Below, piece after piece: positions 5,862-63,639 of a stretch of 64,000 nucleotides of DNA (position 1 is the stretch's first letter; every line of letters starts with the position of its first letter). The notes under the pieces were generated by a model. It made no database searches, was not told where the DNA came from, and saw nothing but the letters and a program-made list of their open reading frames with translations. The DNA is from Candidatus Levyibacteriota bacterium (lineage in GTDB: Bacteria; Patescibacteriota; Microgenomatia; Levybacterales; GWA1-39-11). The translations under genes were made by a program, and so were the position numbers. The stretch covers positions 236,134 through 300,133 of the forward strand of contig DAIQMY010000001.1 of NCBI GenBank assembly GCA_036788695.1. The letters run 5' to 3'.

Positions 5862-6173
5862 ATGCTAGTATTAATACATATGGCTTGTGCAGTAAATGAA
5901 GTAGCAACAGAATTAGGTTGTCTTCCTGATGATCCAGTAGGTTTTGTTCAAAAGTTTTATGGTTGGGGACTTTCTCTTATTGGAATGGTTGGGATTTTGT
6001 TTCTTATTTATGGAGGTTATCACATTCTAACATCCGGTGGGAATCCAGAAAGATTACAAAAAGGTAAGGAATATATATATTATGCAATTGCAGGAATTTT
6101 ACTCGCTGTTTTTGGGTATGTATTTGTAGAATTTATTGCAGGGTCAATACTTAGAATTCCCGGATTTTCATAA
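5862..6173 (+). CDS. Small two-TM protein resembling a TrbC/VirB2-type pilin core
   Basis: About 100 aa with two hydrophobic helices (GWGLSLIGMVGILFLIYGGYHIL and IYYAIAGILLAVFGYVFVEFIAGS) separated by a short polar loop (NPERLQKGKEY). There is no obvious cleavable leader. Confidence 0.3.
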   Translation: MLVLIHMACAVNEVATELGCLPDDPVGFVQKFYGWGLSLIGMVGILFLIYGGYHILTSGGNPERLQKGKEYIYYAIAGILLAVFGYVFVEFIAGSILRIPGFS

Positions 6174-6181
6174 TTTTTATT

Positions 6182-13746: not shown

Positions 13747-14153
13747 TAAGAGTCAGAGAATTAGATTCCCAAGCTATTGCTTTCCCTCGTTATAAACATC
13801 TAATATGTATACATATGGGTATTCTGTCCTATCCTCTTTTGGTGGTTTTGTTTTGGTATAAAGAAGGTATATTTTATATCTTGTTGTATTTCCGTTCGTT
13901 TGACGACTACTGCATACGACTACTCTCATTGCATGGATTATTCTCAAGCTATTTTAAGCCGCTTAAAAACGAGTACAGAAAGAATCTTATTTTGTTTTCA
14001 ATACTTTTTGGGGTGATTGTCAAAACATGTTTAATTGCCATATCTCTCCTTCTATTGTTTTTCATTTTACTTTTTGAGGGACTATTGCTCCTCCTCTATA
14101 TTCTTTTTCCAATTCTGCCTTTATTTATTCTATTTTTATCTAAATATATATGA
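13737..14153 (+). CDS. Hypothetical small hydrophobic protein; may be spurious AT-rich translation
   Basis: A 138-aa ORF in an otherwise ~400-bp gap that overlaps the downstream Hsp100 paralog start as ATGA. Its composition is dominated by F/I/L from AT-rich DNA. Confidence 0.2.
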
Positions 14154-16528
14154 GTCTTATGAAAAATCTTGATCTGTTTAGCTTGTATGTTTTTTATAAT
14201 AATATATTCGTAAAAACCTTTCGTTTTTTAATACTTTTTTTATTAACGATTGCCTTGTTCTACGTAATAAGTGATTTATATTTGTTTAGAATAATTCTTA
14301 GTTTTTATATTGTATTTCTTGTAAATGAAATTTTTATTCATTTTAAGATTAATAAATCCCATCCTTTCAACACAGTAATGATAAGTAGCGACTTGCCTGA
14401 GAAGGCAGTACTGCTGAACGTAAGATATTTGATTTGGTCAAAAAGTAATAATGCTTTTCTTGAGAAATTAATAAAGCAGAAAGATGTTCTATTCTTTATT
14501 ACAAAAATCGACGGATTTAAGGTGTCTTCTGTTGAATTCAATATGACTGGGTTACTTAACAAAGCATCTTCGCTTGCGCAAGCCTGCAAGGGGACATACA
14601 TAACTGCCGCTGATATTTTTGCAGCATATCTTCTTATAACTGAAAACGAAAGCCATCTTTTGGATCAAAAAGAGTTAACAGAGAACGATATTTTGGAAAT
14701 ACTTTTATGGAGTAGGGAAAAATATAATTTTGATAAGGTAAAAGATTTTACGATGCATTTTACAGGAGCGGGTGTTTTTGATTTTTTTATCTACGGTTGG
14801 AATACTCAATTAAAAGAATACTCACTTGATTTAACGTATAGCGTACTTGGGAAAAATATGGCACCTGTTGTAGGGAGAGAAAAAGAGTTTTCTCAAATGG
14901 TGGGAATATTATCAAAAAATTCAATCAATAACATATTAATAATAGGAGAACCTGGTGTTGGAAAATCTTCTCTTGTATCACTTCTGGCATTAGAAGCATA
15001 CCGAAATACGAGATTTATTTTACATAGCACTGTTGTGTATGAGCTTCTTGTTGATAGGCTGCTTGCTGGCGTTTCAGATGCGGGAGAGTTGGAAACGCGC
15101 CTAGGCTTACTACTTTCCGAAATCGAACATATTGGAAATGCTGTACTCTTTATTCAAAACATGGAAAATATCTTTGGAGCTGGAGGGTTTGGTTTTGATA
15201 TGTCGGGAATATTATTTTCCTATTTAAAAAATGGAAAGGTACAGATAATAGGTACAACTACACCGTCATTTTATAAAACTATAATTGAAAAGAAATCAAG
15301 TATTATGAGCTTGTTCGAATTATTAAGGCTAGAGGAACCTGACCGTGATGTCTCACTGCAAATGATTGTGGCCCATGTTGATACTATTGAAAGAGAATAT
15401 CATGTGACCATTTCATATAAAGCAATACATGAGGCATTGGAATTGGCCTCATCATTTCTTCCCGAAACATTTCTTCCTGGGAAAGCAATTATTCTTCTCT
15501 ATGATATTTCGTCGAGGGTTAGGCTTGCGGGTGGAGGTCAAGTTGAGAAGGAGGATGTGGTGAAGTTTATTCAAGAAAAGACAAATATTTTACTTGAAAG
15601 GCCAGATGTAGACGAGAAAAAAGTTTTATTATCTCTAGAGCAAGAATTGCACAAGAGAATAATAGGGCAAGATGAGGCGGTGACTGCAATTTCAAAAGCA
15701 ATAAGAAGGCTCAGGAGTGGTTTTTCTCAGAGTAAACGTCCAATTTCAACTTTTCTCTTTTTAGGTCCTACGGGAGTCGGAAAAACGGAAACAGCAAAGG
15801 CACTATCTCAAATATACTTTGGGGATGAGGCAAATATGATCAGACTTGACATGAGTGAGTATCAGACACAAAATGAGGTGGAAAGATTGTTAGGCGGTGT
15901 TCCTGGAGGGATAGAAATAGAAAACTCATTACCTGAGCAGGTTAGGCTTCATCCTTTTTCACTAATACTATTAGACGAATTTGAAAAGGCACATCCGCAT
16001 ATATTAGATATTTTTCTACAGGTTTTTGAAGATGGTCGACTTACGGATAATAGTGGTAAAACGGTTTCATTTAAAAATACTATTATTATCGCAACAAGCA
16101 ACGCGGGCTCAGAGTCAATTCGTGAGATGATGCATGAAGGGAAAGACCCATTTCTTGCGAAAGACGTTTTAGTAGAGGGATTACTTAGGGAAGGAGTTTT
16201 TAAGCCAGAACTTTTAAATAGGTTTGATGATGTGATTATTTTTACCCCACTTTCTGTTTTTGAAGCGACTGAAATCGCGAAGTTGATCTTGGCATTATCT
16301 TTGAAGTCATTAGAGGATGAACAGATTTTTATAGGATTTGACGACAAGGTTGTAAGTAAAATAGTGCACGATTCATTTGATGAAGAGGCTGGTGCTAGAA
16401 ATATGAGAAGATATGTAGGGTCGACTATTGAGGACTATATATCAAAGCTTATACTGGAAGACAAGTTGCAAAAAGGAGCACATGTAACTTTAACTGTCGA
16501 CGAGACCAACAATTTTATATTACAATAA
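14150..16528 (+). CDS. Membrane-anchored Hsp100/Clp paralog with inactivated D1 (pseudo-ATPase) and intact D2
   Basis: The N-terminal ~70 aa are hydrophobic (2 TM), followed by a Clp_N-like domain. D1 keeps a Walker A (GEPGVGKSS), but its Walker B is VLFIQNMENIF versus ILFIDEIHTLIG in the upstream paralog, so DE has become QN, and its arginine finger ERRFQ has become MSLFE. D2 is intact (FLGPTGVGKTETAK, LILLDEFEKAHPHI, GARNMRR, LLNRFDDVIIF). An alternative start lies at Met77 (~14378). Confidence 0.7.
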   Translation: MSLMKNLDLFSLYVFYNNIFVKTFRFLILFLLTIALFYVISDLYLFRIILSFYIVFLVNEIFIHFKINKSHPFNTVMISSDLPEKAVLLNVRYLIWSKSNNAFLEKLIKQKDVLFFITKIDGFKVSSVEFNMTGLLNKASSLAQACKGTYITAADIFAAYLLITENESHLLDQKELTENDILEILLWSREKYNFDKVKDFTMHFTGAGVFDFFIYGWNTQLKEYSLDLTYSVLGKNMAPVVGREKEFSQMVGILSKNSINNILIIGEPGVGKSSLVSLLALEAYRNTRFILHSTVVYELLVDRLLAGVSDAGELETRLGLLLSEIEHIGNAVLFIQNMENIFGAGGFGFDMSGILFSYLKNGKVQIIGTTTPSFYKTIIEKKSSIMSLFELLRLEEPDRDVSLQMIVAHVDTIEREYHVTISYKAIHEALELASSFLPETFLPGKAIILLYDISSRVRLAGGGQVEKEDVVKFIQEKTNILLERPDVDEKKVLLSLEQELHKRIIGQDEAVTAISKAIRRLRSGFSQSKRPISTFLFLGPTGVGKTETAKALSQIYFGDEANMIRLDMSEYQTQNEVERLLGGVPGGIEIENSLPEQVRLHPFSLILLDEFEKAHPHILDIFLQVFEDGRLTDNSGKTVSFKNTIIIATSNAGSESIREMMHEGKDPFLAKDVLVEGLLREGVFKPELLNRFDDVIIFTPLSVFEATEIAKLILALSLKSLEDEQIFIGFDDKVVSKIVHDSFDEEAGARNMRRYVGSTIEDYISKLILEDKLQKGAHVTLTVDETNNFILQ

Positions 16529-17540: not shown

Positions 17541-19613
17541 TTATAATAAGAAAGACTTTAATAGTCGTAGTCTGGTATAGAATGGTAGAGCTTTTATAAA
17601 AATGGCTCTCACAAGAGCCCTTCGTTTAGTAGCTCTTATTCCAATAAATATAGCTAGGAAAGTCATTATTAGATAATATACCCATAAATCATTTCTATAG
17701 TTATCCCCTTTTTCCATATATGCTCCAGCAATTTTAATTTCTTTCTTGCTACCCGTCTTGTTTCCGGTTTTTGTAGTTGCAGCCAATACTTTTCCATTTC
17801 CCTTAGAAGATACCATAAAATAACTTTCCGCCGTGGCTTCAACTACTGTATCTTTCCCTGTAGTGCCAGTTACATAGGAGAGCGCAGTATAATGTCCCGC
17901 AGGTGCATTATTTGTAAGAACTAACCCGGTTGTTAAGCGTTTTGTTTTTTGAGCTTCGATATCTTCAAGATCAAATGATGGTCCCCCCATAAATTCTCCA
18001 TCTTTGTAGAGCCCTATTAACAATTTTGCTCCATATATTTTTCCTGTTCCGTTATTTTTTGTGTCTACAAAAAATGTTACAGTATCTCCAGGATTTACAA
18101 ACTCTCCCACATTATTTTTATTTGTAACCGTAAGTTTTCCTCCGGATTCTGGATCCTTTATTTTTTCTTGACTATCACCATTTGATATTTGTTCTAATGA
18201 ATGTTCTTCTTGTGTTACTTCTGTAATAAATTTACTTGCGCCACCGATACTTCCTGACCAGTTTCCAAAAACGTTAATAAAAGCAAAAAAACCATTTGTT
18301 TTGAAAAAATTTGAGTTGATAAAGTTAATCAGTGAAACTGCAGAGTATGCATTTCCGGTTTGTATAAGTCCATCATTTCCATGAATAATGTTGGTCCCGG
18401 TATCTGCCTTTGTTTTAACGGTGTTTTTTACAATAGCTGTGTTCTCAGTTATAAGAGCAGTATCACAATCACAGTCATTATTATTATTTGAGAGGCTTAA
18501 GGTGTCTCCTCCATTTTGAGGTTCAAAACTATCCCACCCCAAAAAATTACCAGTCCATTTTCCTAGAACGTTTATAAATAGCTTTTGGAATAGTGCTCCG
18601 ACAGCATTTGTATTTACCATATCTACAATGTTTATAATGCTGTGTGAGGTGCCGGTCTTGATCATTGAAGAAGAGCTAGCTATATCTATGCTGTTGTTCC
18701 CGGTATTCGTATCAGCTGTTACATCATTTTCTATAAGTGCAATATTTTTCATGGTTGCAGATGAACCACAGGATGCACATTCTGTTTCTTCATGAAAGTC
18801 AGGAAGAATTATATTGCCTGAAAAGTCTCCAAATATATTAATGGTGACTATATGGATAACAGAGTCGACAACAGTGAAATTTGCTTTATTTACGAGTGAG
18901 ACTACAGAGTATGCATCCCCTGTTTTGATAAGGGCGTTTTCTCCTTCAGCTATTTCATTTCTTCCTGTAGACGCGGTGGCAAATACATCATTGTCAAGAT
19001 ACACATAGTTTTTTGCATCAGTTACAGAAACGTTAACAATCGGGTTTGTATTTTTATCCTGAGAGATGATCGTGTAGGCAAGATTAAATGGTGTAGACAA
19101 ATCTATACTTTCTGCATCGTCTACAAAGATATTAATAGTTTGATTTATCACCTGTGAATTAATTGAATTTGTGTTTACTGTGTTGTCTACAGACACGAGC
19201 GTTGTAGAATCGCCCGTTGTAATAGAAGAGCTTGAGTTCTGCTGTGCAGGTGAGGAGCTCTGAGGAGTTTCGTGAGAGTTACTTGAAGGTAAGTTAGATG
19301 AAGCCTCTTCAGCGTCCGGAGGAGTAAGCTCAGCAGAGGTGGTTGAAATATTTTCTCCTGTGTTAGATGCTCCCGCAGTTGTATCATGCGCTTCAGTTGT
19401 ATTTGCTTGTGTTGTGTTTTCTGCGGCTTCACTTGGAGATGGAGTGGGGGTAGTAGTTTGGGTTGGTGTTGGATCAGCTTGCTCTATTACAGTAGGCGTA
19501 GGGGTATCAGTTGGTGTTTCATCAAGCGCGTAGACTGTGAATGGCGAGATAGAATTGACTCCAATAACAAGAAATATAATAAAAAGTGCGAAATATCTTT
19601 TGAATCCTGCCAT
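17541..19613 (-). CDS. Cell-surface protein: signal peptide, T/P-rich linker, three internal ~65-aa repeats each preceded by a C-x-C motif, C-terminal TM anchor
   Basis: Has a signal (FALFIIFLVIGVNSISPFTVYA) and a PT-rich linker. The repeats centre on IKTGDAYSVVSLVNKAN / IKTGTSHSIINIVDMVN / IQTGNAYSAVSLINFIN, and each ends in INxFGxWSGN. CASCGSS and DCDCDT precede repeats 2 and 3. The C-terminus has a TM (LWVYYLIMTFLAIFIGI) and a basic tail. Confidence 0.5.
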   Translation of the reverse strand: MAGFKRYFALFIIFLVIGVNSISPFTVYALDETPTDTPTPTVIEQADPTPTQTTTPTPSPSEAAENTTQANTTEAHDTTAGASNTGENISTTSAELTPPDAEEASSNLPSSNSHETPQSSSPAQQNSSSSITTGDSTTLVSVDNTVNTNSINSQVINQTINIFVDDAESIDLSTPFNLAYTIISQDKNTNPIVNVSVTDAKNYVYLDNDVFATASTGRNEIAEGENALIKTGDAYSVVSLVNKANFTVVDSVIHIVTINIFGDFSGNIILPDFHEETECASCGSSATMKNIALIENDVTADTNTGNNSIDIASSSSMIKTGTSHSIINIVDMVNTNAVGALFQKLFINVLGKWTGNFLGWDSFEPQNGGDTLSLSNNNNDCDCDTALITENTAIVKNTVKTKADTGTNIIHGNDGLIQTGNAYSAVSLINFINSNFFKTNGFFAFINVFGNWSGSIGGASKFITEVTQEEHSLEQISNGDSQEKIKDPESGGKLTVTNKNNVGEFVNPGDTVTFFVDTKNNGTGKIYGAKLLIGLYKDGEFMGGPSFDLEDIEAQKTKRLTTGLVLTNNAPAGHYTALSYVTGTTGKDTVVEATAESYFMVSSKGNGKVLAATTKTGNKTGSKKEIKIAGAYMEKGDNYRNDLWVYYLIMTFLAIFIGIRATKRRALVRAIFIKALPFYTRLRLLKSFLL

Positions 19614-19657
19614 ATATTTTTTTATGTATAAAACGATTTGCCGCTATAAATCAGATC

Positions 19658-19687
19658 CTGAGGAGGAGAGTTTCCTCCCCTCCTCAG
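19658..19687 (-). promoter_or_regulatory. GC-rich stem-loop between the small and large repeat-protein genes (partial terminator or attenuator)
   Basis: CTGAGGAGG, a 12-nt loop, then CCTCCTCAG. The stem is a perfect 9 bp, with no clean U-tract after it on the minus strand. Confidence 0.4.
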
Positions 19688-19703
19688 AGAACTTACCAAA
19701 AAA

Positions 19704-20183
19704 CTATTCAACAACGTTTGTGTTAACAACGTTATTTACTGCTACTCCTGTTGAGGATGCACCTGTCATTGAAAGTTGTGCACCAAGAAGCGCAACGTTT
19801 GCGTTCTTTCCTGAGTTAGAAGTGCCTTTAACGTTTGTTACAACAAAAGCAGAATTTGCTTGTGTTGTATTTCCGTTTGCTACTCCAACGTTCAATTTAG
19901 GGCTAACACATCCACAACTTGTTTTGTTGTAGTTTACCTGTTGAGCTACACCTACGCTTGTAGTTGCTGCTCCGGTTGATGACCCTTGGATTCCTACTGC
20001 TGCTGCGTTAAGATTTTTCCCAGTGTTTGAGACTCCCTTAACGTTTGTAACAACAACTGCATTATTTGTTTGTGTTGTGTTTCCATTTAACGCACCAATA
20101 TTTACTGCAGCAAATGTTGGGGTTGCAGCGCCTAGCATTACTGCTCCAGCTGCTGCTGATACGACTAATTTTTTAAAATTCAT
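19704..20183 (-). CDS. Small secreted protein made of two tandem ~65-aa N/T/V-rich repeats (same module as the downstream large surface protein)
   Basis: Taking the real start as MNFKKLVV, it has a perfect SD (AAGGAGGTG) 9 nt upstream. The signal peptide ends ...TPTFA|A. The repeats are NIGALNGNTTQTNNAVVVTNVKGVSNTGKNLNAA and NVGVANGNTTQANSAFVVTNVKGTSNSGKNANVA, separated by SCGCVSP. Confidence 0.5.
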   Translation of the reverse strand: MNFKKLVVSAAAGAVMLGAATPTFAAVNIGALNGNTTQTNNAVVVTNVKGVSNTGKNLNAAAVGIQGSSTGAATTSVGVAQQVNYNKTSCGCVSPKLNVGVANGNTTQANSAFVVTNVKGTSNSGKNANVALLGAQLSMTGASSTGVAVNNVVNTNVVE

Positions 20184-20217
20184 ATATTTATTCACCTCCT
20201 TTTTTTTAATATTACGA

Positions 20218-20260
20218 AAAAAAATCGGCTGTGTTCCCATGGGAAGTAAAACCGATTTTA
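20218..20260 (-). terminator. Rho-independent-terminator-like hairpin + T8 tract (minus strand), lying in front of the repeat-protein SD
   Basis: On the minus strand it reads AAAATCGG-TTTTACTTCCCATGGGAACACAG-CCGATTTTTTTT. The loop contains a CCCATGGG palindrome. It lies downstream of the DUF2292 gene and 15 nt upstream of the SD of the next gene. Confidence 0.4.
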
Positions 20261-20412
20261 AGTAAGTAGGAAAGAATATTATTCATATTTTAAAAAAGGA
20301 TAAAAACCTACAAAAAAAAGACACTTCACCCGATAAAATCGGGATCAGTGCCTCCGTTAACGGCCAGCATTTCCTTGTTAAGGTAATTTATAAACTAATA
20401 TTAAGTTAATTG

Positions 20413-20613
20413 TCAATGCTCTGTTTGCATATCATACATGTTTTTTCCTGCGGCAACTAAGGGTTTCTTAATATTTTTTTCTGTAATTTGTGTTACTAAA
20501 AAATCCTGTACGCAAATCTCAACAGTGCCCCATCCACGGATATTCTGCAAAGAAGAAACAAGCTCATTGACTAGATCAGGAGTAATTTTTTTCGTAGAGT
20601 ATTTGTCTGCCAT
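20413..20613 (-). CDS. DUF2292 (YezD-like) small protein
   Basis: From the MADKY start (~66 aa) it reads ITPDLVNELVSSLQNIRGWGTVEICVQDFLVTQITEK. This matches the YezD/DUF2292 pattern (..L..i.yGsveivvqdgkvvqiek). Confidence 0.45.
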   Translation of the reverse strand: MADKYSTKKITPDLVNELVSSLQNIRGWGTVEICVQDFLVTQITEKNIKKPLVAAGKNMYDMQTEH

Positions 20614-20684
20614 GATGATATTGAAGGGCAGACATATCATCTAAAAATATAGCCTTTTGTCTGGTGGTTGTCAACTGGTAAATC

Positions 20685-21089
20685 TTATTTAAAAAATGAT
20701 TTAAGCATAATCTCAATATTTAACATGAATTGTTCTATGCCAGTTTTTTTTTCGTGTTTATTTTTTTTATTTTTATGAGTTGCCGTTGGTTTTTTTACTG
20801 TTTGAGTGCTTGTAATACTTGGAGGCTGAATAGTATTTCTGATTTGAGAAGATGTAGTAGATGAGTCTATCTTAATTTCTACCTTGCCATCCTTAAAGCT
20901 ATCTATAACCTTTTTTCCCCCGTTTGCCTCTATTGATATATGCGTTTCAGCTTTCCCCCCTGAAGTGTTGGTTTCAACGTATACAGATGTATTTGCGTCA
21001 CCTGTTGTGAAAGACTCAGCATAAGTATTTGAGAAAGAAAGAGAAAGAAGGACAAGGGGAAGTAGAAATAATATTTGTTTTTTATTCAT
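20685..21089 (-). CDS. Small secreted hypothetical protein (signal peptide, basic C-terminus)
   Basis: Starts with the signal peptide MNKKQILFLLPLVLLSLSFSNTYA|ESF. No domain is recognised. Confidence 0.4.
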   Translation of the reverse strand: MNKKQILFLLPLVLLSLSFSNTYAESFTTGDANTSVYVETNTSGGKAETHISIEANGGKKVIDSFKDGKVEIKIDSSTTSSQIRNTIQPPSITSTQTVKKPTATHKNKKNKHEKKTGIEQFMLNIEIMLKSFFK

Positions 21090-53493: not shown

Positions 53494-55077
53494 ATGAGAT
53501 CGGGAACAGTAGGGACAGTAGGAGCAGTAGGGGTGGGGGGACGCGCCTCTTTTGGCTTACAAGCATCTTCAAAGAGCCCTGGGATATCGTTTTCGCCTGA
53601 AGCTCGTACAGGAGGATCTGCAAGCTCATTTTCTTCAAGAAATCTTTCCCTTTTTAATCGTGAGGCAATTTCTCCTAAGTCATATTCTATTTTTAATATA
53701 AACCATGGGAAAGAAAGATCGCCAAAATTTGCTACAGCACCATCGCTACGTTTACAGAAAGATACAAAGGGTGTTTCTGTTGGGACTGTAAAAGAAAGAA
53801 GTGTCTCAGGTATAGCAGATGCTAAAAAAAACGGTAACCACACGAAGCCATTTTCCTTTTCCATGAATCATCAAAATGCTTATGAGAGTAAACCTAAGAC
53901 AGTAAACTCTCACTTACCTCAAAAAGAAAAATCAATAGTAAAGACAAGAAAAAATACTTTTACTGTTTTTGAGAATGGCTATTTTGGTGTGGCTCATAGG
54001 AAGGTGGATTTGAGCGTAGGCGTTACGAACAAAATAGATCGAGCGAAAGGAGTTAGGTGTCCAGGTAATGAAGTAGTATTATGGCAGAAGTCCCAGGATA
54101 AACGGGTAGTTTATAAATCTTTTGATGTGCGACACATCCATAAAGTTGCTCGTAAACCCCTTGAGCGGAATAATGTAAAAGCATATGAGAATTTTGTTAA
54201 AGAAAAACAAAGGCAAAATACAAATACAAAAAATAAGGATGTGGTTAGGACGAAAAACGCAGAAGTAGATTATGACGTTCATATTCAAAAGCAAAAAACA
54301 TTGAAAAGGAGGAAATTGTCACAAATGATTAGTATTCATCCATCTATTAGACCAGATGTTGCGGCTTTAATACGAAGAGATATTAAAGACGCAAAAAACA
54401 TGGTCCCACTCATAACCACTGCTAGAAAAGTTTCCTATGAGACAGCACAAAAAGAAGCACTTTCTTTATTGTTAAAAAAACACGAAGGAAGACTTATAAT
54501 TCATAAAGAGAAGCATCAAATTCAGGAAAAAGGAAAAGAAAAAAAGGATCGTGAATTCTCTCGTACTCCCATAATGAAATCAGAAGATAAAATATATTTT
54601 GAAAGAGATGAAGGAGCAAACAGTGCGAGAGAGGATAGGGTAGTTGAAGCATTTGATCATCTTTTAAAAAATAGAGGAGAAGATAAGGTTATTCCAAAGG
54701 GGTCTGAAGTTGCAGGCATGATCGGGCAATTAGACCAAGAGGTGAAAAGTGAAATAAAGATGGGCACATCTGGGGACGGTTCGTTTAAGGCGTTTGTTTT
54801 TGAGATCGCAAGTCTCGGGGAGTTGAAAGATGCGCGTGCGTTAAGAGAGATTACAAGACAAATTATCACAAAAATTACGGCAGTTAAGTTAACCTCAAAA
54901 ATATCCTATCTAAGCGCTTCATATGATGACGCGCGTAGAGTATATGAGACTGCTCTTCAGGGTGTAAAGGGTTTCTTTAAGGAAAAAGATTTTCTATTGG
55001 GTGAATTTAAGACGAGGGTTGATGGAGTGATACTATATGAAGCACGTGAGAAGGGCATAGCATCCGAAGTAGGATAG
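53494..55077 (+). CDS. Lysine-rich hypothetical protein (527 aa), no recognised domain
   Basis: A long ORF in a low-GC genome. It is basic with a K/E-rich middle and a more globular C-terminal third. The true start is uncertain (internal Mets). The antisense ORF 53454..53864 is judged a shadow. Confidence 0.4.
   Translation: MRSGTVGTVGAVGVGGRASFGLQASSKSPGISFSPEARTGGSASSFSSRNLSLFNREAISPKSYSIFNINHGKERSPKFATAPSLRLQKDTKGVSVGTVKERSVSGIADAKKNGNHTKPFSFSMNHQNAYESKPKTVNSHLPQKEKSIVKTRKNTFTVFENGYFGVAHRKVDLSVGVTNKIDRAKGVRCPGNEVVLWQKSQDKRVVYKSFDVRHIHKVARKPLERNNVKAYENFVKEKQRQNTNTKNKDVVRTKNAEVDYDVHIQKQKTLKRRKLSQMISIHPSIRPDVAALIRRDIKDAKNMVPLITTARKVSYETAQKEALSLLLKKHEGRLIIHKEKHQIQEKGKEKKDREFSRTPIMKSEDKIYFERDEGANSAREDRVVEAFDHLLKNRGEDKVIPKGSEVAGMIGQLDQEVKSEIKMGTSGDGSFKAFVFEIASLGELKDARALREITRQIITKITAVKLTSKISYLSASYDDARRVYETALQGVKGFFKEKDFLLGEFKTRVDGVILYEAREKGIASEVG
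53505..53540. repeat. 9-bp tandem microrepeat (ACAGTAGG-like x3-4) at the 5' end of the 527-aa ORF
   Basis: aacagtagg gacagtagg agcagtagg ggtgggggg, encoding TVGTVGAVGVGG. Confidence 0.6.
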
Positions 55078-55108: not shown

Positions 55109-56965
55109 TTGAGCACAGTGCAAGCACATCAAATTGTCGAAAGATATATTACGTTTTTTGAAAAAAAAGGACACAGACGAATAGAAAATTCTTCTCTTGT
55201 TCCCCTTAACGACCCCACTACTCTGTTTACATCTTCGGGCATGCAACCTCTTGTGCCCTATTTGCTCGGAGAGATACACCCAGCAGGGAAAAGATTAGTA
55301 AATGTTCAAAATTCCTTTAGGGCGCAAGATATTGATGAAATTGGTGATAACAGACACACGACATTTTTTAGAATGCTTGGAAACTGGTCATTAGGAGATT
55401 ACTTTAAAGAGGATCAAATCCCATGGTTTTTTGAGTTTTTGATAAGAGATTTACGGCTTGATCCAAAGAGATTATATGTAACAGTTTTTGAGGGTTCTGA
55501 GGCTATTCCTGAAGATAAGGATGCAATACGCATTTGGAAAGAGGAATTTAAAAAAGTAGGAATTGACGCTGAAGTTGGAAGTCGAATATTTACATATGGA
55601 GTTTTGAAGAATTGGTGGAGCAGATCAGGCTCGCCAGATAAGATGCCGGTAGGAGAACCGGGAGGACCGGATACAGAAGTATTTTATGATTTTGGAACTG
55701 AACATGACACGAGTTTTGGCGAGAAATGTCATGTGAATTGTGATTGCGGACGGTATTTGGAGATAGGAAATTCTGTTTTTATGCAATACATAAAGGTTAT
55801 TGATGGATTTCAGGAGTTGCCTCAAAAAAACGTAGATTTTGGTGGAGGTTTGGAGAGGCTAGTTGCGGTAACGGAAGGAAAAACTGATATATTTGAAACT
55901 TCTCTTTTTACTCCAATAATAGGCGCAATAGAAAAAGTATCTGGTAAAAATTATGAAACAAACAAGCGCGAGATGAGGATAGTTGCTGATCATATAACTG
56001 CTGCAATTTTTATCTCCTCAAATAACGTAACTCCGTCTAATAAGGAACAGGGTTATGTGCTGCGTCGGTTGATTAGACGTGCTGTTGATAGTTTGCATCT
56101 TTTAGGAACTCAAGATGTTGAGCCAATTATTCATGCAATTGTTGCTTCTTATAAAGATACAGACCCGCAATTAGTAGAAAAATATGAGCTTGTTAAAAAC
56201 TCAATACTTCAGGAAATAGGGTCCTACAAAAAGGCGCTAGATGGCGGAAAGAGGATGATAGAAAAAGAGCTATCAAGTGGGGAAAAGGTAGGGGATGAGT
56301 TATTTGGAGAAATTGAGATTTCAGCGGAGGTGGCATTTAAGGCAATTACTTCTTTTGGTTTGGGGCCTACACAGTTAAGAGGTTTAGGGTATACATTTGA
56401 TGCTCAGAAGCTAGCAGATCAAATAAAGGCACACCAGAACCTTTCGCGTAAGGGTTCTTCTCAAAAATTTTCGGGAGGACTGGCTGATAATTCGGAAAAG
56501 ACAATTATGGGGCACACTGCAACTCACCTAATGCATCAAGCTTTGAGAGATATGTTTGGTATGGAGCTTCACCAAACTGGGAGTAACATAACAAGCGAAA
56601 GGGTAAGATTTGATTTTAATTTTGACCGCAAGTTAACAGTAGATGAGATAAAAAGTCTTGAAGACACGGTTAATCAAAAGATAGAAGAGAACTTGCCAGT
56701 TCACTTTGAATTAATGCCGGTATCCTACGCGAAAGCATTAGGTGCAATAGGATTATTTGATGAAAAATATGCAAGCAATGTAAAAGTATATTTTATCGGA
56801 GGAGAAGAGAAAAATCTTGAGAGTCAACGTTTAAAGGATTGGTATTCGGCAGAGTTCTGCGGTGGTCCTCATGTAAATTTTACAGGAGAGGTGAAAAGGT
56901 TTAGAATAATAAAGCAAGAATCTTTAGGACGTGATCAGCAAAGATTATACTCTGTTGTTGGATAA
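55109..56965 (+). CDS. alaS: Alanine--tRNA ligase, truncated form (catalytic + editing domains, no C-Ala domain)
   Basis: The N-terminus (FFEKKGHRRIENSSLVPLNDPTTLFTSSGMQ) and FRMLGNWSLGDYFK match AlaRS. The editing motifs HTATHLMHQAL and CGGPHV are present. It is 618 aa against a typical ~870. Confidence 0.9.
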   Translation: MSTVQAHQIVERYITFFEKKGHRRIENSSLVPLNDPTTLFTSSGMQPLVPYLLGEIHPAGKRLVNVQNSFRAQDIDEIGDNRHTTFFRMLGNWSLGDYFKEDQIPWFFEFLIRDLRLDPKRLYVTVFEGSEAIPEDKDAIRIWKEEFKKVGIDAEVGSRIFTYGVLKNWWSRSGSPDKMPVGEPGGPDTEVFYDFGTEHDTSFGEKCHVNCDCGRYLEIGNSVFMQYIKVIDGFQELPQKNVDFGGGLERLVAVTEGKTDIFETSLFTPIIGAIEKVSGKNYETNKREMRIVADHITAAIFISSNNVTPSNKEQGYVLRRLIRRAVDSLHLLGTQDVEPIIHAIVASYKDTDPQLVEKYELVKNSILQEIGSYKKALDGGKRMIEKELSSGEKVGDELFGEIEISAEVAFKAITSFGLGPTQLRGLGYTFDAQKLADQIKAHQNLSRKGSSQKFSGGLADNSEKTIMGHTATHLMHQALRDMFGMELHQTGSNITSERVRFDFNFDRKLTVDEIKSLEDTVNQKIEENLPVHFELMPVSYAKALGAIGLFDEKYASNVKVYFIGGEEKNLESQRLKDWYSAEFCGGPHVNFTGEVKRFRIIKQESLGRDQQRLYSVVG

Positions 56966-59243
56966 ATTTATGAAGCTGCCCTTCTTAAGTAAAAAAAAAG
57001 AAGATAAAGAATACTTTTTAGCCTTACTGCTTTCCTCAAATGAAGTAAGAAGTATTCTATTTGAGAAAACAGGTGAGAATCTTTCTGTTTTAGGATCTCA
57101 CAGTGAAGATTTTGCTGAACAGCTAGACACTCTTTCAAAGGATCGTTTAATAGAGCTTTCAGACATGGTGATTTCCGAGGCAGAACGTAAATTACCTGAG
57201 GGATCAAGTCTTCAAAAAACAATCTTTGCGGTTCCAGATAGATGGGTTGTAAACGGAAAGATTATTCAGGAACATCTCCCAAAGTTAAAAGAACTATGCG
57301 ATGCCTTGCAGCTTAAGGCTGTTGGGTTTATTGTTTCTATGGAAGCAATAATTGCCTATCTTCATAAAAAAGAAGGAGTTGCTGTCACCGCGATTTTTAT
57401 AGAAGTAGGTAAAAAACATGTGACCTTGAGTCTTGTAAAAAACGGGAACATATTAAGCGTATCGGAGGAGGAGATAGAAAATGATACAACTGTTCCTGTT
57501 GAAAGAATATTGTCTACACAGGAAGAGCTTGAAGTATTACCTGCAAAAATAATAATACTTCCCTTTGAGCATGCTAAAAAGATCCAACAGGAATTTCTTT
57601 CTCATTCATGGAGTAAGGGTATTCAATTTTTACATATTCCACAAGTTGAAGTCCTTCCATCAGAGGCAGAGGCGCAGGCAGTTATTTCAGGAGTTGCAGC
57701 ACAGATGGGTTTCAGCACGCTTCCCCAAGTTAGTCTCCAAAAGCTTGAAAAATCACCTGAAGAGGTAGTAGTTGCTGTCCATGAGCAGGAAGAAAAAAAA
57801 ACGATTGAAAAAAAAGAAATAGAAGACGGACAGAGTGAATCGGATAAAGAATCTATGGCGGAAGAAAAGGGGAGCACGGTAGATGCTGAATCTGTTGGAT
57901 TTTTTAAAGATGTAGATGTAGCAAAAAAACAGAATGAGCAACATGAGGTGGAAAATATTCAACCTGTTTCAGCAACTGACGAAAAAAATACAAAAATGGA
58001 AGATTCTAGTAGTGTGAATCATCCGACCCATGCATTAGCTATTGATAATTTACCATCATTACCTCACGTTTCATTCCCAGGTGTAAAATTTAAAATTCCA
58101 AGCTTTTCCTTGCGGGGAAAGTCGTTGGTTTGGTACCCTGTTCTGGGAGTATTTTTATTTATTCTTTTTATAATTTCCTACTATTTTTTCTTTGAAAAAG
58201 CACAAGTTATTTTGGTTCTCAGTAAGAAAGATATAAGTAAGAATGTATCAGTGACCTTCTCGCAGGAAAAACAAACATCTGCGCAGGATTCGGTGGTGCA
58301 TATAGAAGAGCTTGCGGTGCAAGTAGATGGAAAAGAAGAGCAAAGTGCTACCGGTAAAAAAGAAACTGGAGATAAAGCCAAGGGAGAGGTAACGCTTTAC
58401 AATAAGACTGAAGGATCAAAGACATTTGAGAAGGGAGTAGTTGTTATAGGATCAAACAATCTGGAATTTAGTTTATTGGAAGATGTTAAAATTGCATCAA
58501 CCAGTTCTTTCTCGACTACTTTCAGCAATGCCAAAGGAAAGGTTGAGGCAGTAAAGTTTGGTAAAGAATATAACCTTCCCTCAGGAACAAATTTTCAAAT
58601 AAAAGGACAATCGACATCTGATTTTTTTGGCAAAAATGATTCTGCCTTTTCTGGGGGAACAAAGAAAGAAATTACTGTTGTATCAGAGGATGATATTTCC
58701 TCGCTTCAATCAAAAATTGTATCAACTCTTGCAAAAAAGGCACAGAATGATATATCTTCAAAAATAGGATCAGATTCGCAAATCCTGGCAACACCGCTTG
58801 ATTTCTCATTTGATGAGAAATCATTTTCAAAAAAAGCAGGCGATGCCGCAGAAGCGGTAAGTATTACAGCAACTATAACCTACAAGATAGGATCTTATAA
58901 AAAATCCGATCTTGTTACACTTGCAAAAGATATCACAGGGAAGGATGCTCCTGCAAGCTATATATATTCAGGAAAGGACTCCGAAATTAAGGTAGAGGAT
59001 ATTGTGAATGATGAATCTGAGTTTACTGGAAAAATTGTTTTTTCATCTGTTTTTTTGCCGCAAGTAAATGAGGATGGAATTGGGAAGAAAGTATCCGGGA
59101 AAAGTGAGCAGAAGGCACAGGAATTAATTGAATCTGATGGAGTTTCAGATAGTACGATTGTTTTTACAAGAAGTCTTCCGTTTTTCCCCCATATTCTTCC
59201 ATTTAATAAAAAAAATATAGAGGTAATCACTCAAACACAATGA
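56931..59243 (+). CDS. Bitopic protein: N-terminal degenerate PilM/FtsA-like actin-fold domain, one TM, ~380-aa S/T/K-rich extracytoplasmic domain
   Basis: KTIFAVPDRWV, LQLKAVGFIVSMEAIIAYL and VTAIFIEVGKKHVTLSLVKNGNILSV align with PilM blocks (VVLALPG / LEPVAVDVEAFALYRAL / VAVVDIGAETTELVLL), but the phosphate-binding DxG and DIGxxTT residues are replaced. A TM follows at VWYPVLGVFLFILFIISYYFFF. Confidence 0.4.
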   Translation: MISKDYTLLLDKFMKLPFLSKKKEDKEYFLALLLSSNEVRSILFEKTGENLSVLGSHSEDFAEQLDTLSKDRLIELSDMVISEAERKLPEGSSLQKTIFAVPDRWVVNGKIIQEHLPKLKELCDALQLKAVGFIVSMEAIIAYLHKKEGVAVTAIFIEVGKKHVTLSLVKNGNILSVSEEEIENDTTVPVERILSTQEELEVLPAKIIILPFEHAKKIQQEFLSHSWSKGIQFLHIPQVEVLPSEAEAQAVISGVAAQMGFSTLPQVSLQKLEKSPEEVVVAVHEQEEKKTIEKKEIEDGQSESDKESMAEEKGSTVDAESVGFFKDVDVAKKQNEQHEVENIQPVSATDEKNTKMEDSSSVNHPTHALAIDNLPSLPHVSFPGVKFKIPSFSLRGKSLVWYPVLGVFLFILFIISYYFFFEKAQVILVLSKKDISKNVSVTFSQEKQTSAQDSVVHIEELAVQVDGKEEQSATGKKETGDKAKGEVTLYNKTEGSKTFEKGVVVIGSNNLEFSLLEDVKIASTSSFSTTFSNAKGKVEAVKFGKEYNLPSGTNFQIKGQSTSDFFGKNDSAFSGGTKKEITVVSEDDISSLQSKIVSTLAKKAQNDISSKIGSDSQILATPLDFSFDEKSFSKKAGDAAEAVSITATITYKIGSYKKSDLVTLAKDITGKDAPASYIYSGKDSEIKVEDIVNDESEFTGKIVFSSVFLPQVNEDGIGKKVSGKSEQKAQELIESDGVSDSTIVFTRSLPFFPHILPFNKKNIEVITQTQ

Positions 59244-60013
59244 GGTCATATAGATTTATAAAACAAGAACCGAGATCAGGAATAAAAAAAAGAAAGATAT
59301 TAGGTGTGGGAATTATTTTATGTGGTATTTTCCTGCTTTTATACTTTTTCTTTCCTGTTTTTTCAATTAAATCTTTTTATTCTTCATCCGATGCTATTAT
59401 TGTGCCAGTTCCTAAATATGCTATGGTAAGAGGTGGAATAGGAGATGTAATAAAGCAGGGAATTGATAGTTTAACGCATGACTACAATGATGCAAGGAAT
59501 TGGTATCCACAGATAAGTGCAGGGAAAAAAAATTCTATACCTACCTACTCTCTTTCCATACCAAAATTAAAAATTATTGATGCAAAAGTATCAACCGTTG
59601 ACTATGATTTGACAAATCATTTGGTTCAGTACATAGGAACTGCAATACCGGGCGAAAATGGAACAGCAGTCATATTTGGTCACTCAACACTTCCACACCT
59701 TTTCAATCCAAAAAATTACAAATCTATCTTTGCAACCTTACACACAATAAAAGTTGGAGATGAGATTATTACAAATGTAAAAAACGTGACATACACCTAT
59801 AAAATTTTCTCAGTTACGGTGACAACTCCAGAAGATACTGATATATTTTCTCAATCTTTTGATCATTCATATTTAACAATTGTAACGTGTACCCCACCCG
59901 GAACAGTTTGGAAGAGATTAATAGTGAGAGCTCTTTTGGAGGATGTAGATAAAAATGCGAAAGGAAGAACGGTGAAGGGGGAAGTTTTGGCAGGAGGATT
60001 TATTCAGAAATAG
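59240..60013 (+). CDS. Sortase-family transpeptidase
   Basis: Has an N-terminal TM, a catalytic His context (AVIFGHSTLP) and TLxTC-like LTIVTCTPPGTVWKRLIVRA (Cys + Arg). Confidence 0.75.
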   Translation: MRSYRFIKQEPRSGIKKRKILGVGIILCGIFLLLYFFFPVFSIKSFYSSSDAIIVPVPKYAMVRGGIGDVIKQGIDSLTHDYNDARNWYPQISAGKKNSIPTYSLSIPKLKIIDAKVSTVDYDLTNHLVQYIGTAIPGENGTAVIFGHSTLPHLFNPKNYKSIFATLHTIKVGDEIITNVKNVTYTYKIFSVTVTTPEDTDIFSQSFDHSYLTIVTCTPPGTVWKRLIVRALLEDVDKNAKGRTVKGEVLAGGFIQK

Positions 60014-60014
60014 T

Positions 60015-60254
60015 ATGGAAGACACAAATCCAAATTTAAATCCTTCACCTCTTTTTCAGGATAAGAAAGAACAGGTTGTTCGACCTGAAGGAACAGCATC
60101 AGTATTTTCTAATCTCTTCCACTCTTTTGGTTATTATCTAAGACAAATTTGGCCATATATCTATCGTTTGATTAACTTTCTTGTCTATGAAACAATTAAG
60201 GTTATAAAGGGTACAGTAAAGCTTGCGATAGAACAGGTGGGAATGTTTAAGTAA
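60015..60254 (+). CDS. Small hypothetical protein (79 aa)
   Basis: An ORF tightly packed after the sortase. No domain is recognised. Confidence 0.25.
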   Translation: MEDTNPNLNPSPLFQDKKEQVVRPEGTASVFSNLFHSFGYYLRQIWPYIYRLINFLVYETIKVIKGTVKLAIEQVGMFK

Positions 60255-61607: not shown

Positions 61608-63101
61608 ATGAAATATAAATTACTCTTGCTTTTCCCACTTTTCTATTTTCTTATATTATTGCTGCAGCCCACAATAGAAATGGCTGAAGATTTAGGGCGT
61701 CAGATTAAGATGGGCGAAGTTATATTAAAGTGTCAGTGCATCCCACAGGAAAATCATTTTTCATACACAAATACACACTTCCCCGCTGTTAACTACTATT
61801 GGTTATCTTCAGTTATTTTTTATGCTTTCTCAAGCATTTTTGGAATTAAGAGCTTATTCTTTTTGAAAATAGTAATTTATCAGGCAATATTTATTGTTTT
61901 GTTTTTGTCTCTCAGTAAAAAAATCAGCGTGTTTTGGTTTGCCGTTTTTATGATTGTTGTAGTAAATATATTTTCAAATCGCCTGGTACTGCGTCCTGAG
62001 ATTTTCAGCTTCTTATTTCTTAGTTTATTCATTTTAATAATCGAAAAATTTAAACAAAATAGAAATTATAAGCTTATATATTTTCTTCCACTCATACAAT
62101 TGCTATGGGTGAATACTCATGTATTCTTCTTTATTGGACCCCTGGTATATCTCTTTTTCTTAATAGAACAATTTATAATAAGTCGTGCGCTTATAAATGT
62201 TAAGGTGATAAGTGTCTTTTTCTTTATCATTTTAGCGTGTGTACTAAATCCACAATTTTTAATAGGTGCCGTCTATCCATTTCTTGTTTTTAACAGTTAC
62301 GGACCGCAGATAAATGAAAACTTCAGTCCATTTTCAAGCAATTCTTTATTTCTTGCTGACTATTCATATTATATTTGGTTTTTTGAATTGACAATTGCAC
62401 TATTTATTGTAGGAATTTTATCAAATATTAAAAAAATTCCAATATTTTTGTGTCTTAACACACTATTTTTTATGTTTTTATCTTTTGTAATGGTTAGAGC
62501 ATTTCCCCTATTTGCTTTTGCGTCAATAGTACCGTTATCTATTATGTTCAGCTATATTGAACTCAAAATAATATCAAAAGATAGACAAACTGCTTTTCTG
62601 ATAAAGACGCTAATAATAATAGGACTTTCCATAATAGTCACATATAACTTAAGTGCTTTTTTTATGCAAAAAAAGATATCCCCACACTTCATAGTAGATA
62701 AATTAAATGGAATAGATTTTGTAGAGAAAAATGGAATAAAAGGTCCACTCTTTAATAGCCTAGGAATAGGAGGATATGTTATATATAAATTATATCCTGC
62801 AGAAAAAGTTTATATAGATGCGCGACCGGACGCATATCCACTAAATTTTATGAGCAGTTATCAGGAGCATTTTACAAATCCAATGTTTTTTCAGCAACAG
62901 TTAGTTAAGCATAAATTTAACACCTTGATAATAGCAAAAGATGAAAATTATTACTGGACACATAATCTTATTGCGTACCTAATAAAGAGAAGGGAGTGGG
63001 TGGTCGTGTACGAGGATAACTTTACTTCGGTATTAGTGAAGGATAATAGTGTAAATAAGCATATTATTGAAAGATTCAGGAAGACAAAGAAGAATGAATA
63101 A
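61608..63101 (+). CDS. Polytopic membrane protein (>=10 TM), possibly GT-C-type glycosyltransferase; hypothetical
   Basis: 497 aa and dominated by hydrophobic helices. No soluble catalytic motif is recognised. Confidence 0.35.
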   Translation: MKYKLLLLFPLFYFLILLLQPTIEMAEDLGRQIKMGEVILKCQCIPQENHFSYTNTHFPAVNYYWLSSVIFYAFSSIFGIKSLFFLKIVIYQAIFIVLFLSLSKKISVFWFAVFMIVVVNIFSNRLVLRPEIFSFLFLSLFILIIEKFKQNRNYKLIYFLPLIQLLWVNTHVFFFIGPLVYLFFLIEQFIISRALINVKVISVFFFIILACVLNPQFLIGAVYPFLVFNSYGPQINENFSPFSSNSLFLADYSYYIWFFELTIALFIVGILSNIKKIPIFLCLNTLFFMFLSFVMVRAFPLFAFASIVPLSIMFSYIELKIISKDRQTAFLIKTLIIIGLSIIVTYNLSAFFMQKKISPHFIVDKLNGIDFVEKNGIKGPLFNSLGIGGYVIYKLYPAEKVYIDARPDAYPLNFMSSYQEHFTNPMFFQQQLVKHKFNTLIIAKDENYYWTHNLIAYLIKRREWVVVYEDNFTSVLVKDNSVNKHIIERFRKTKKNE

Positions 63102-63639
63102 AAAACGACTAATAATATTTTCCTTGTTTCAGCTCATTACTTTTGTTTTAGGAACACTTGTATTTATAATTTTGTTCAGACTCAATTTATTATTTCCTAT
63201 TGATACAATTTTTTACAGAGGAATAGTGCTCCTTATATGTACCTGTTTTTTGTTATCGTTCATGCTTCTTTTATTTAAGAAAAGTAGATATGGAGGAATT
63301 ATTGATTACAAGGACATATTGATTAGTATTGTAATAGTTTTTTCATTTAATCTTGTTATTTTTACACTTTTGCCAGTGACTACAGACAGGTCGATTTCAG
63401 TGATGATATTAAAGCATATGGATACTCACAAAAATCTAAGCAACACTTCTTATCAGGTAGAGAACGCATTGGATGTTACCCTTAAAAAGGAGCATGCATT
63501 AGAAAAACGTTTGCACGAGCAGGTTATTTCCGGGAATATAAAAAAAACACGTGAGGGATATAGAATAACTACTCAGGGAAGTCATCTTGTAAACCTTTTT
63601 TTTGTAGTAGACATGATATTTGGTACTAAGAAGGAGTAG
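63067..63639 (+). CDS. Membrane protein (4 TM + C-terminal soluble region), hypothetical
   Basis: The likely start is MNKKRL (~63094). There are four hydrophobic helices, then a polar ~70-aa tail. Confidence 0.3.
   Translation: MKDSGRQRRMNKKRLIIFSLFQLITFVLGTLVFIILFRLNLLFPIDTIFYRGIVLLICTCFLLSFMLLLFKKSRYGGIIDYKDILISIVIVFSFNLVIFTLLPVTTDRSISVMILKHMDTHKNLSNTSYQVENALDVTLKKEHALEKRLHEQVISGNIKKTREGYRITTQGSHLVNLFFVVDMIFGTKKE

Follow-up and report, generated by a model that had tools for sequence, protein, structure and literature searches.

What is the large transmembrane protein whose gene is locked to a sortase gene in the Microgenomates, and what would such a sortase act upon when no LPXTG protein is encoded near it? 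The question is raised by a 64,000-nucleotide stretch of Candidatus Levyibacteriota DNA (GenBank assembly GCA_036788695.1, contig DAIQMY010000001.1, positions 236,134 to 300,133 of the forward strand), hereafter the window, and specifically by a plus-strand gene at 56970..59243 whose bitopic product we call X as a working name. Judged by relatives in which its two halves are separate genes, X is a Rosetta-stone fusion of an actin-fold (ASKHA) protein with its bitopic membrane partner. Its cytoplasmic domain is related to FtsA and PilM and has a degenerate nucleotide site, its ectodomain contains a barrel of the kind found in phage baseplates, and a sortase gene follows it in every fused locus that extends far enough downstream.

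X is 757 aa long, since all of its homologues begin at the ATG at 56970, where the sequence MKLPFL opens the protein; this codon lies 4 nt past the alaS stop, and the resulting protein has an exact match at NCBI. The open reading frame (ORF) as first called runs from a GTG at 56931 to 59243. That frame exists, but the start is misplaced and would overlap alaS by 35 nt. The single transmembrane (TM) helix claimed for the protein was recovered in a hydropathy scan, and the ectodomain is indeed rich in Ser, Thr and Lys (S 13.5%, T 7.5%, K 12.4%; 33% in total), but its length is 348 aa and not ~380 aa. A 135-aa acidic linker went unmentioned in the earlier description. The topology of X is most probably N-in/C-out, given that there is no signal peptide, that 385 residues of cytoplasmic type precede the TM helix and that the sortase has an N-terminal anchor. 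Coordinates of all features are collected in Table 1.

A degenerate actin fold and its split relatives

The N-domain of X was modelled with AlphaFold2 (AF2) from an 86-sequence family alignment. Residues 13–250 reached a predicted local distance difference test score (pLDDT) of 88.6 and a predicted template modelling score (pTM) of 0.84, and the order of their secondary-structure elements is that of a textbook ASKHA core, 2 x beta-beta-beta-alpha-beta-alpha-beta-alpha, with no extra subdomains. The top Foldseek match in the PDB was Pseudomonas aeruginosa PilM (5eou; E = 1.9e-10, template modelling score 0.54–0.57), followed by EutJ, PPX/GppA and FtsA; the Foldseek probability was 1.0 for these four and for hexokinase. 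The actin fold proposed for this domain in the first-pass annotation is thus predicted by model and structure search alike. A direct alignment with PilM/FtsA sequence blocks, also proposed there, was not found: Pfam, NCBIfam, PHROGs, and PDB sequence and profile searches gave no PilM or FtsA match to X or its N-domain, a domain whose family comprises 1431 clusters at 50% identity. The gap was bridged through stand-alone orthologues alone, which come from loci where X is split into two genes.

Metagenomes and a genome set with one member per GTDB species were scanned for further loci, and 160 were added to the earlier ones. Twelve loci showed the split form, two of them in WWE3 genomes and ten on metagenome contigs, and all belong to the Candidate Phyla Radiation (CPR). 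In every split locus a stand-alone ASKHA protein of ~390–420 aa is encoded directly 5′ of a TM-ectodomain protein of 504–632 aa, in which a conserved 85-aa N-terminal domain replaces the ASKHA domain, and in both WWE3 loci the two genes overlap by 4–11 nt. Pfam assigns the stand-alone protein to PilM_2, FtsA or MreB_Mbl. A profile built from the twelve stand-alone proteins matched the solved FtsA 7q6f over nearly the full length (E = 8.7e-24), Myxococcus xanthus PilM (3jc8, E = 2.8e-23) and MreB (E = 1.6e-12). When the profile of the X N-domain was aligned with the stand-alone ASKHA profile, hhalign returned a probability of 98.5% (E = 3.5e-15, 229 columns), with the alignment beginning at a common N-terminal MKLPF peptide; the family motifs LPSKIIL and WsKxlPF are retained in both split and fused forms. 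The relationship to PilM and FtsA therefore stands by way of this intermediate profile. Because the halves of X occur elsewhere as separate, adjacent and co-transcribed proteins, they function together. Of the PilM-PilN-like fusion suggested in the first-pass annotation, the joining of an ASKHA protein to a bitopic partner holds, and the PilN-like ectodomain does not.

The stand-alone orthologues keep intact ATP motifs (LDIGT, DIGGGTTD and CGGGS), whereas all three loops are degenerate in X. The residues LLS and EVGKKHVT, which had been read at the DxG and DIGxxTT positions, do belong to the phosphate-1 and phosphate-2 loops; a single acidic residue, E145, is all that X retains of the latter. 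Loss of both phosphate loops and of the GGG of the adenosine loop holds throughout the alignment of the fused family. The multiple alignment shows in addition that a 1C-like insertion (~100 aa), a 2B-like insertion (~60 aa) and a C-terminal amphipathic-looking helix are present in the split orthologues and absent from X, whose ASKHA domain measures 250 aa as compared with about 390–422 aa in the stand-alone proteins. On the comparative evidence of the split forms, the N-domain of X is a degenerate, nucleotide-site-dead module of FtsA/PilM type.

The stand-alone FtsA-like proteins (L132:4201-5460, L161:4232-5500, L073:6524-7696, L083:6337-7593 and those of eight other split loci) are themselves worth recording. 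In most of them the C-terminus is an amphipathic-looking helix (in one case GILSRVVGSLRS) that resembles the membrane-targeting helix of FtsA. Their genes do not adjoin ftsZ, and the conserved 85-aa N-domain of their bitopic partner carries SVVNLKLLKKEA. The split pair looks like an undescribed FtsA paralogue with its partner, situated next to ruvX-mltG-mreBC. In X, two linear motifs, e.fGF.k..Dv in the linker and MKLPFLxxKK at the N-terminus, are conserved amid cytoplasmic parts that are otherwise variable or modelled with low confidence, and these may be docking sites for other partners; a GF..K-like stretch, EGFVTKEL, also occurs in the linker of the WWE3 partner protein of locus L083.

A baseplate-type barrel in the ectodomain

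Where a PilN-like domain had been expected, the ectodomain contains a barrel of the Baseplate-J/gp47 type. Its family profile matched one solved protein, TRI-2 (CD1371, 8v3w) of the Clostridioides difficile diffocin baseplate (E = 1.8e-6). Several members of the family score 24.8–33.9 bits against Pfam Baseplate_J (PF04865; cutoff 21.1), a match that overlaps the GlxA beta-barrel model, and the significant Foldseek matches in the PDB and BFVD are mostly baseplate J, gp47 or wedge proteins (diffocin, XM1, phi812, A-1(L), Mu and phiCD508). No PilN, PilO or GspL-type domain is among the listed Foldseek matches of the X ectodomain. Compared with baseplate wedge proteins (P2 gpJ, Mu gp47, T4 gp6, diffocin TRI-2 and TssF of the type VI secretion system), X shares a ~105-aa barrel at ~20% identity, and the Foldseek alignments run over about 330–360 columns of these ~350-aa proteins. 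It is unlike them in its overall superposition (template modelling score about 0.2), in being tethered to the membrane, in having no contractile-tail genes beside it and in being a chromosomal, housekeeping-type CPR gene.

A PHROGs search of X gave no match, and neither did a tblastn search of 50,697 phage records with the ectodomain; there are no sheath, tube, gp25 or gpI genes near X. The ectodomain is that of a cellular, membrane-tethered protein which uses a baseplate-type barrel, and X is not a prophage gene; the name assigned by the NCBI Prokaryotic Genome Annotation Pipeline, 'baseplate J/gp47 family protein', is misleading for it. Two stretches of X were considered as sorting signals and rejected. 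NLPS in the ectodomain aligns with YNLP of TRI-2 and is hence structural, and PVLGV lies within the TM helix, where the family does not conserve it and its presence is taken as coincidence.

The linked sortase and its candidate substrates

The protein encoded 3′ of X matches Pfam Sortase (PF04203) with E = 1e-21 and 77.4 bits. The TLxTC-type Cys and the Arg recognized in the first-pass annotation are confirmed as members of a triad, H148, C217 and R226 (motifs FGHSTLP, TCTPPGT and WKRL), that is more than 90% conserved across 79 homologues. The generic model TIGR01076 is the only one whose cutoff is passed: no NCBIfam model for classes A–F reaches its own, the best being class C with 59.4 bits against a required 160. 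As far as its motifs indicate, the X-linked sortase is catalytically intact, and it is unclassified.

Coupling between the two genes was assessed in the 116 fused loci that remained after removal of duplicates, 113 of which extend 400 nt or more beyond the 3′ end of X ('with room'). A sortase lies immediately 3′ of X in 113/113, and the two genes most often overlap by 8 nt (49 loci) or 4 nt (13 loci). Among the split loci, 11 have room, and in none of these do the fetched flanks, of up to 6–8 kb, contain a sortase. In Roizmanbacteria an SBP gene on the 5′ side and a class A penicillin-binding protein (PBP) gene on the 3′ side replace alaS and the phosphorylase gene, and the X-sortase pair is kept. 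Cell-wall genes recur in the vicinity: mltG near X in Levybacteria, PBP1 and VanW in Roizmanbacteria, ruvX-mltG-mreB-mreC or a CHAP/LysM hydrolase near the split loci, and a D,D-carboxypeptidase in those of WWE3.

The sortase gene is followed in turn by a small ORF, found in 86 of the 113 fused loci, with a conserved ~46-aa core (FLKxIWPTVYRIIN...QIKG) that includes an IWPxxYR motif. The fused gene is thus translationally coupled both to the sortase and to this small hydrophobic protein. In actinobacteria, a 52-aa protein encoded 3′ of srtA, SafA, shields SrtA from signal peptidase through its FPW motif (PMC9282373). The arrangement here is similar in that a small hydrophobic protein (about 46–80 aa) with an aromatic-Pro motif, IWP for FPW, is encoded directly 3′ of a widely conserved sortase. 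It differs in that IWP is N-terminal to the hydrophobic segment, and SafA systems have no X-like partner upstream. By analogy of position, the small protein may have a SafA-like role.

As to substrates, three independent scans of all six frames of the window found no LPXTG-like motif followed by a hydrophobic segment and a basic tail in any real gene, in agreement with the first-pass annotation. A loose LPXTG-like scan of the window returned antisense artefacts only, and the ORFs of 83 related loci and of the window include no substrate gene within 6–8 kb of the sortase. The repeat proteins at 17.5–20.2 kb, put forward earlier as possible substrates with a non-canonical signal, have become somewhat stronger candidates. 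In the window and the first 83 loci, the 690-aa secreted protein encoded there is the only real signal-peptide protein with a C-terminal TM helix and basic region. It belongs to a family that is widespread in Microgenomates and whose members share a C-terminal module consisting of a near-invariant [VI]L[GA][AST], a polar spacer of ~20 aa, a TM helix ending in AYxxIR and an R/K cluster, and beyond it an unusually long, conserved cytoplasmic tail, ..FKERLxxLRMFLL (RATKRRALVRAIFIKALPFYTRLRLLKSFLL in the window protein). What does not fit the earlier suggestion is that the sortase adjoining this gene in relatives is a different paralogue of ~200 aa, 28–31% identical to the X-linked enzyme. This second sortase lies in the cluster in three of five loci homologous to the 690-aa gene that were examined (L166, L167 and L168). 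In the same three loci a secreted protein of 143–155 aa overlaps the start of the second sortase and ends in ..QAV[LQ]GLS, ~12 aa, a TM helix and K[LF]F[KI]K[HN]A, which makes up a compact tripartite signal with the same VLG motif.

A search with a profile of the 86-aa VLG module gave one hit, E-values being too strict for so short a profile against 5.8 billion sequences, and across the window and the first 83 loci a regular expression for the conserved tail picked out the window's 690-aa protein alone. Within the Microgenomates, VLG makes a good candidate non-LPXTG signal for sortases, and by analogy the X-linked enzyme may be a housekeeping sortase that acts on this signal too. Gram-positive pilus loci resemble this arrangement in having two sortases, one (~200 aa here) in the surface cluster beside a protein with a tripartite signal and one outside it, here with X. 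They differ in their signal, which is LPXTG and not VLG[ASTL], and from their substrates the 690-aa protein is set apart by its long spacer and 30-aa cytoplasmic tail.

The surface-protein cluster itself, which is conserved in Microgenomates, occupies 17541-21089 on the minus strand of the window, with counterparts at L166:4712-10310, L167:6159-10088 and L168:4321-10247. In the window it lies between queA and a dehydrogenase gene and encodes a 134-aa secreted protein, a 75-aa DUF2292-like protein and repeat proteins of 178 and 690 aa; the ~200-aa second sortase is absent from the window's own cluster.

Table 1. Positions in the window of X, the genes coupled to it and the candidate substrate
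Feature	Position	Strand	Remarks
Gene X	56970..59243	+	757 aa: FtsA/PilM-like pseudo-ATPase, linker, TM helix, Baseplate-J-like ectodomain
Conserved N-terminal peptide MKLPFLSKKKED	56970..57005	+	Low pLDDT; also in stand-alone FtsA-like orthologues (L083: MFKLPFSFG...)
Minimal ASKHA (actin-fold) domain	57006..57719	+	Residues 13-250; without 1C-like and 2B-like insertions
Degenerate phosphate-1 loop LLLSSNE	57024..57044	+	Aligned as LLLSSNEVR; split orthologues LDIGTEF (LDIGTEFVK)
Degenerate phosphate-2 loop AIFIEVGKKHVT	57390..57425	+	Core IEVGKKHVT; split orthologues IFMDIGGGTTDI (core DIGGGTTD)
Degenerate adenosine loop LPAKIIILPFEHA	57537..57575	+	ILPFEHA; split orthologues LPSRILLCGGGSALP (CGGGSALP)
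Acidic, variable linker	57720..58124	+	Residues 251-385, 135 aa, isoelectric point 5.0; presumably disordered and cytoplasmic
Linker motif ESVGFFKDVDV	57888..57920	+	Conserved; family consensus e.fGF.k..Dv
Single TM helix	58125..58196	+	Residues 386-409; hydropathy scan, helix in AF2 model
Ectodomain	58197..59240	+	348 aa, S/T/K-rich; AF2 pLDDT 94.6
Baseplate-J/gp47-type (also GlxA-type) beta-barrel	58365..58670	+	Within ectodomain; Pfam, PDB profile, Foldseek
Sortase	59240..60013	+	257 aa; ATG within the end of X (...CAATGA), 4-nt overlap (ATGA)
Sortase N-terminal TM helix	59297-59365	+	
Sortase motif FGHSTLP	59672-59695	+	
Sortase motif TCTPPGT	59879-59905	+	
Sortase motif WKRL	59909-59923	+	
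Small hydrophobic protein	60015..60254	+	79 aa; 1 nt past the sortase stop
Secreted repeat protein	17541..19613	-	690 aa; candidate non-canonical sortase substrate
C-terminal module of the 690-aa protein	17544..17801	-	KVLAATT (family VLG[AST]), polar spacer, TM helix, R/K cluster, ~30-aa tail ..RLRLLKSFLL

The window has a GC content of ~37%, and X lies among plus-strand housekeeping genes (NusA, IF2, PNPase, RNase J, FtsK, a RodZ-like helix-turn-helix protein, CofD and an Nth-type glycosylase). On its 5′ side are the gene of an unannotated 527-aa protein (53494-55077, +), basic, of low complexity and without a Pfam or PHROGs match, and directly after it that of a short AlaRS (55109-56965, +) of just 618 aa, which has a TTG start and whose Pfam matches are limited to the catalytic core and second additional domain. 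On the 3′ side of the module follow a thymidine/AMP-phosphorylase-like gene and two genes for polytopic membrane proteins of 497 and 190 aa (61608-63639, +), which have no significant Pfam match; they lie where GC falls to 30.6%, over 62–64 kb.

Farther away, between dnaK and clpB (5862-8344, +), a 103-aa protein matching Pfam T4SS_pilin (PF18895, E = 3e-8) precedes a membrane protein of 720 aa whose match to TrbL/VirB6 is weak; the two may be a remnant or a minimal type IV secretion-like pair. Two AAA+ chaperone paralogues of ClpB/ClpC type, of 886 and 792 aa, are encoded within 8 kb (8395-11055 and 14150-16528, +), and between them lie dnaJ and the gene of a secreted subtilase of the S8 family that carries SdrD_B/CarboxypepD_reg domains (11080-12834). 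Among the related loci, L004, L006-L010 and many more come from records of metagenome-assembled genomes titled 'uncultured Gammaproteobacteria bacterium', apparently a mislabelling, since these Levybacteria-like CPR genomes have the same gene content and synteny as loci titled Levybacteria.

Possible functions of the X module

The reading towards which we lean, tentatively, casts X as a transmembrane scaffold, independent of nucleotides, that organizes sortase-dependent surface assembly according to the logic of GspL and PilM-PilN. X would be specific to Microgenomates-type CPR and would have arisen by fusion of two neighbouring genes that are still separate in WWE3 and other CPR, the ancestral pair having presumably been an FtsA/PilM-family ATPase and a bitopic partner with a Baseplate-J/gp47-type barrel. 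The actin-fold domain, trimmed to its 250-aa core, would most likely be a nucleotide-independent docking module, a role suggested by the loss of the phosphate-1, phosphate-2 and adenosine loops. X would hold the sortase and the small, possibly sortase-stabilizing protein at defined membrane sites beside the wall-synthesis machinery. Its ectodomain would be an oligomeric platform at the outer face of the membrane, and there non-LPXTG surface proteins, probably with a VLG-type signal, would be anchored; we infer both the oligomerization of the ectodomain and the identity of the substrates.

The cytoplasmic domain of GspL is likewise without a working nucleotide site, and GspL and PilMN already exemplify the principle, in which an actin-fold adaptor is fused to a bitopic protein. 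X shares with GspL the layout of the chain (a cytoplasmic actin-like domain, a TM helix and an extracytoplasmic domain), and with GspL and PilM-PilN the joining, by fusion or docking, of a cytoplasmic actin-fold adaptor to a bitopic protein, in split and fused versions; a fused PilMN occurs in some Gram-positives. Unlike GspL and PilN, X has a Baseplate-J-type barrel in place of a ferredoxin-like domain, and its partner is a sortase. No secretion ATPase, platform protein, pilin or gsp genes were found near it.

Several observations weigh against the scaffold reading. The statistical link between fusion and sortase (Fisher p = 6e-16) ignores kinship and may reflect a single ancestral event; alaS, X and the sortase gene belong to a broadly conserved syntenic block, so that their adjacency may in part be inherited gene order; and physical contact between X and the sortase is putative. 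That the N-domain has lost ATP binding is deduced from its sequence alone. The window's own X scores 16.1 bits for Baseplate_J, under the cutoff of 21.1. The same barrel occurs in a cellular protein, GlxA, which is among the significant Foldseek matches of the ectodomain. The rigid baseplate match is confined to the barrel (root-mean-square deviation 3–5.6 Å, 17–26% identity), and the longer alignments superpose poorly, as described above. Finally, where a VLG signal does stand beside a sortase, the enzyme belongs to the other, ~200-aa family.

Some of the same evidence can be turned towards wall morphogenesis or division, an identity for X that we consider unlikely. X would then be an FtsA-like anchor of the divisome or elongasome (compare RodZ/MreC and FtsQ/FtsN), and the co-transcribed sortase would act independently of it on substrates encoded elsewhere. 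By sequence, the stand-alone orthologues are closest to FtsA, with which they align over nearly their full length, and they have a terminal amphipathic-looking helix; FtsA and X are both membrane-attached, and cell-wall genes lie nearby. The order in split loci is alaS ... ASKHA - TM/ectodomain - ruvX - mltG - mreB - mreC, Roizmanbacteria have a class A PBP gene 3′ of the sortase and VanW/PG_binding_4 on the 5′ side, and the split form occurs with no sortase nearby. However, the order alaS-ruvX-mltG is common in bacteria and says little about function. X also lacks the 1C-like insertion, nucleotide loops and amphipathic helix of FtsA, has a true TM anchor and is not beside ftsZ, and a dead ATPase without 1C-like and 2B-like insertions is unlikely to be a dynamic cytoskeletal element. 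The sortase coupling, which is tight (4–8 nt overlap), present in all 113 fused loci and maintained when the flanks change, also speaks against an independent enzyme.

An improbable elaboration makes X a sorting receptor between cytoplasm and surface. The dead domain would bind the tails of VLG proteins, much as PilM binds a PilN peptide and FtsA the tail of FtsZ, and would pass them to the sortase, with a ring of ectodomains as the base of a surface filament or layer that would be built by that enzyme and serve these episymbiotic cells. We give similarly little credence to the idea that X is itself a partner in the sortase reaction, either as an acceptor, through an ectodomain lysine such as one in the invariant TGKKETGDKAKG stretch, or by being cleaved, so that polymers would be tethered to a membrane protein and not to peptidoglycan. 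Strict coupling of the two genes, the invariant lysine-rich motifs of the ectodomain and the lack of a substrate gene within 6–8 kb of the sortase would all be accounted for. But X has no motif, TM helix and basic region at its C-terminus, and its conserved C-terminus, LPFFPHILPFNKKNI, is folded (pLDDT >90). Moreover, KAKGEVT aligns with the start of the structural barrel in TRI-2, so that its conservation may be structural, and to our knowledge lysine acceptors in sortase reactions are restricted to pilin subunits.

A role for X in a type IV pilus or competence machine, as an alignment subunit in which PilM and PilN are fused, is very improbable and largely refuted. PilM is the best single PDB fold match of the N-domain, PilM_2 matches a split orthologue, and the split order, ASKHA gene followed by that of a bitopic protein, resembles pilM-pilN; yet the significant PDB matches of the ectodomain are baseplate wedge proteins and GlxA, with none of PilN, PilO or GspL type among those listed, and no pilB/C/D/T or pilin genes occur among the scanned window ORFs or in the annotated related loci. 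CPR genomes, moreover, are reported to carry separate, co-localized PilM, PilN and PilO families (PMC6744442). The Pam pilus (10.64898/2026.03.03.709456) was considered as an explanation and rejected, these pili being chaperone-usher-like and including neither a sortase nor anything like X. That the ectodomain is what is left of a prophage or tailocin, a view for which the Pfam, PDB and BFVD baseplate matches and the database names could be cited, is refuted by the context of X, with housekeeping genes on either side (NusA, IF2, PNPase, RNase J, FtsK, AlaRS and a nucleoside phosphorylase), no contractile-tail genes nearby, no match in PHROGs or phage tblastn searches, a position conserved across phylum-level lineages and an ectodomain that shares its chain with a TM helix and a cytoplasmic domain.

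Sortase is reported to be near-ubiquitous in Microgenomates (PMC6744442). In the literature on CPR sortase and on baseplate J and FtsA/MreB in Patescibacteria, we found only statements that CPR encode sortase, and came upon no account of X, the split pair, a VLG signal or a partner or substrate of the Microgenomates sortase. What is new in the X module is the type of ectodomain, the obligate coupling to a sortase and the candidate VLG signal; the principle of the actin-fold adaptor is not. Our analysis also corrects the database name under which X is currently filed. The Microgenomates and their relatives are a very large and almost wholly uncultured group, whose biology is thought to rely on surface structures that contact a host. 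The genetic lock between their sortase and a conserved transmembrane protein that has no name suggests an undescribed module for cell-surface assembly, and the X module, the split and fused pair and the candidate VLG signal are testable entry points to how CPR bacteria build their surfaces and anchor proteins to them.

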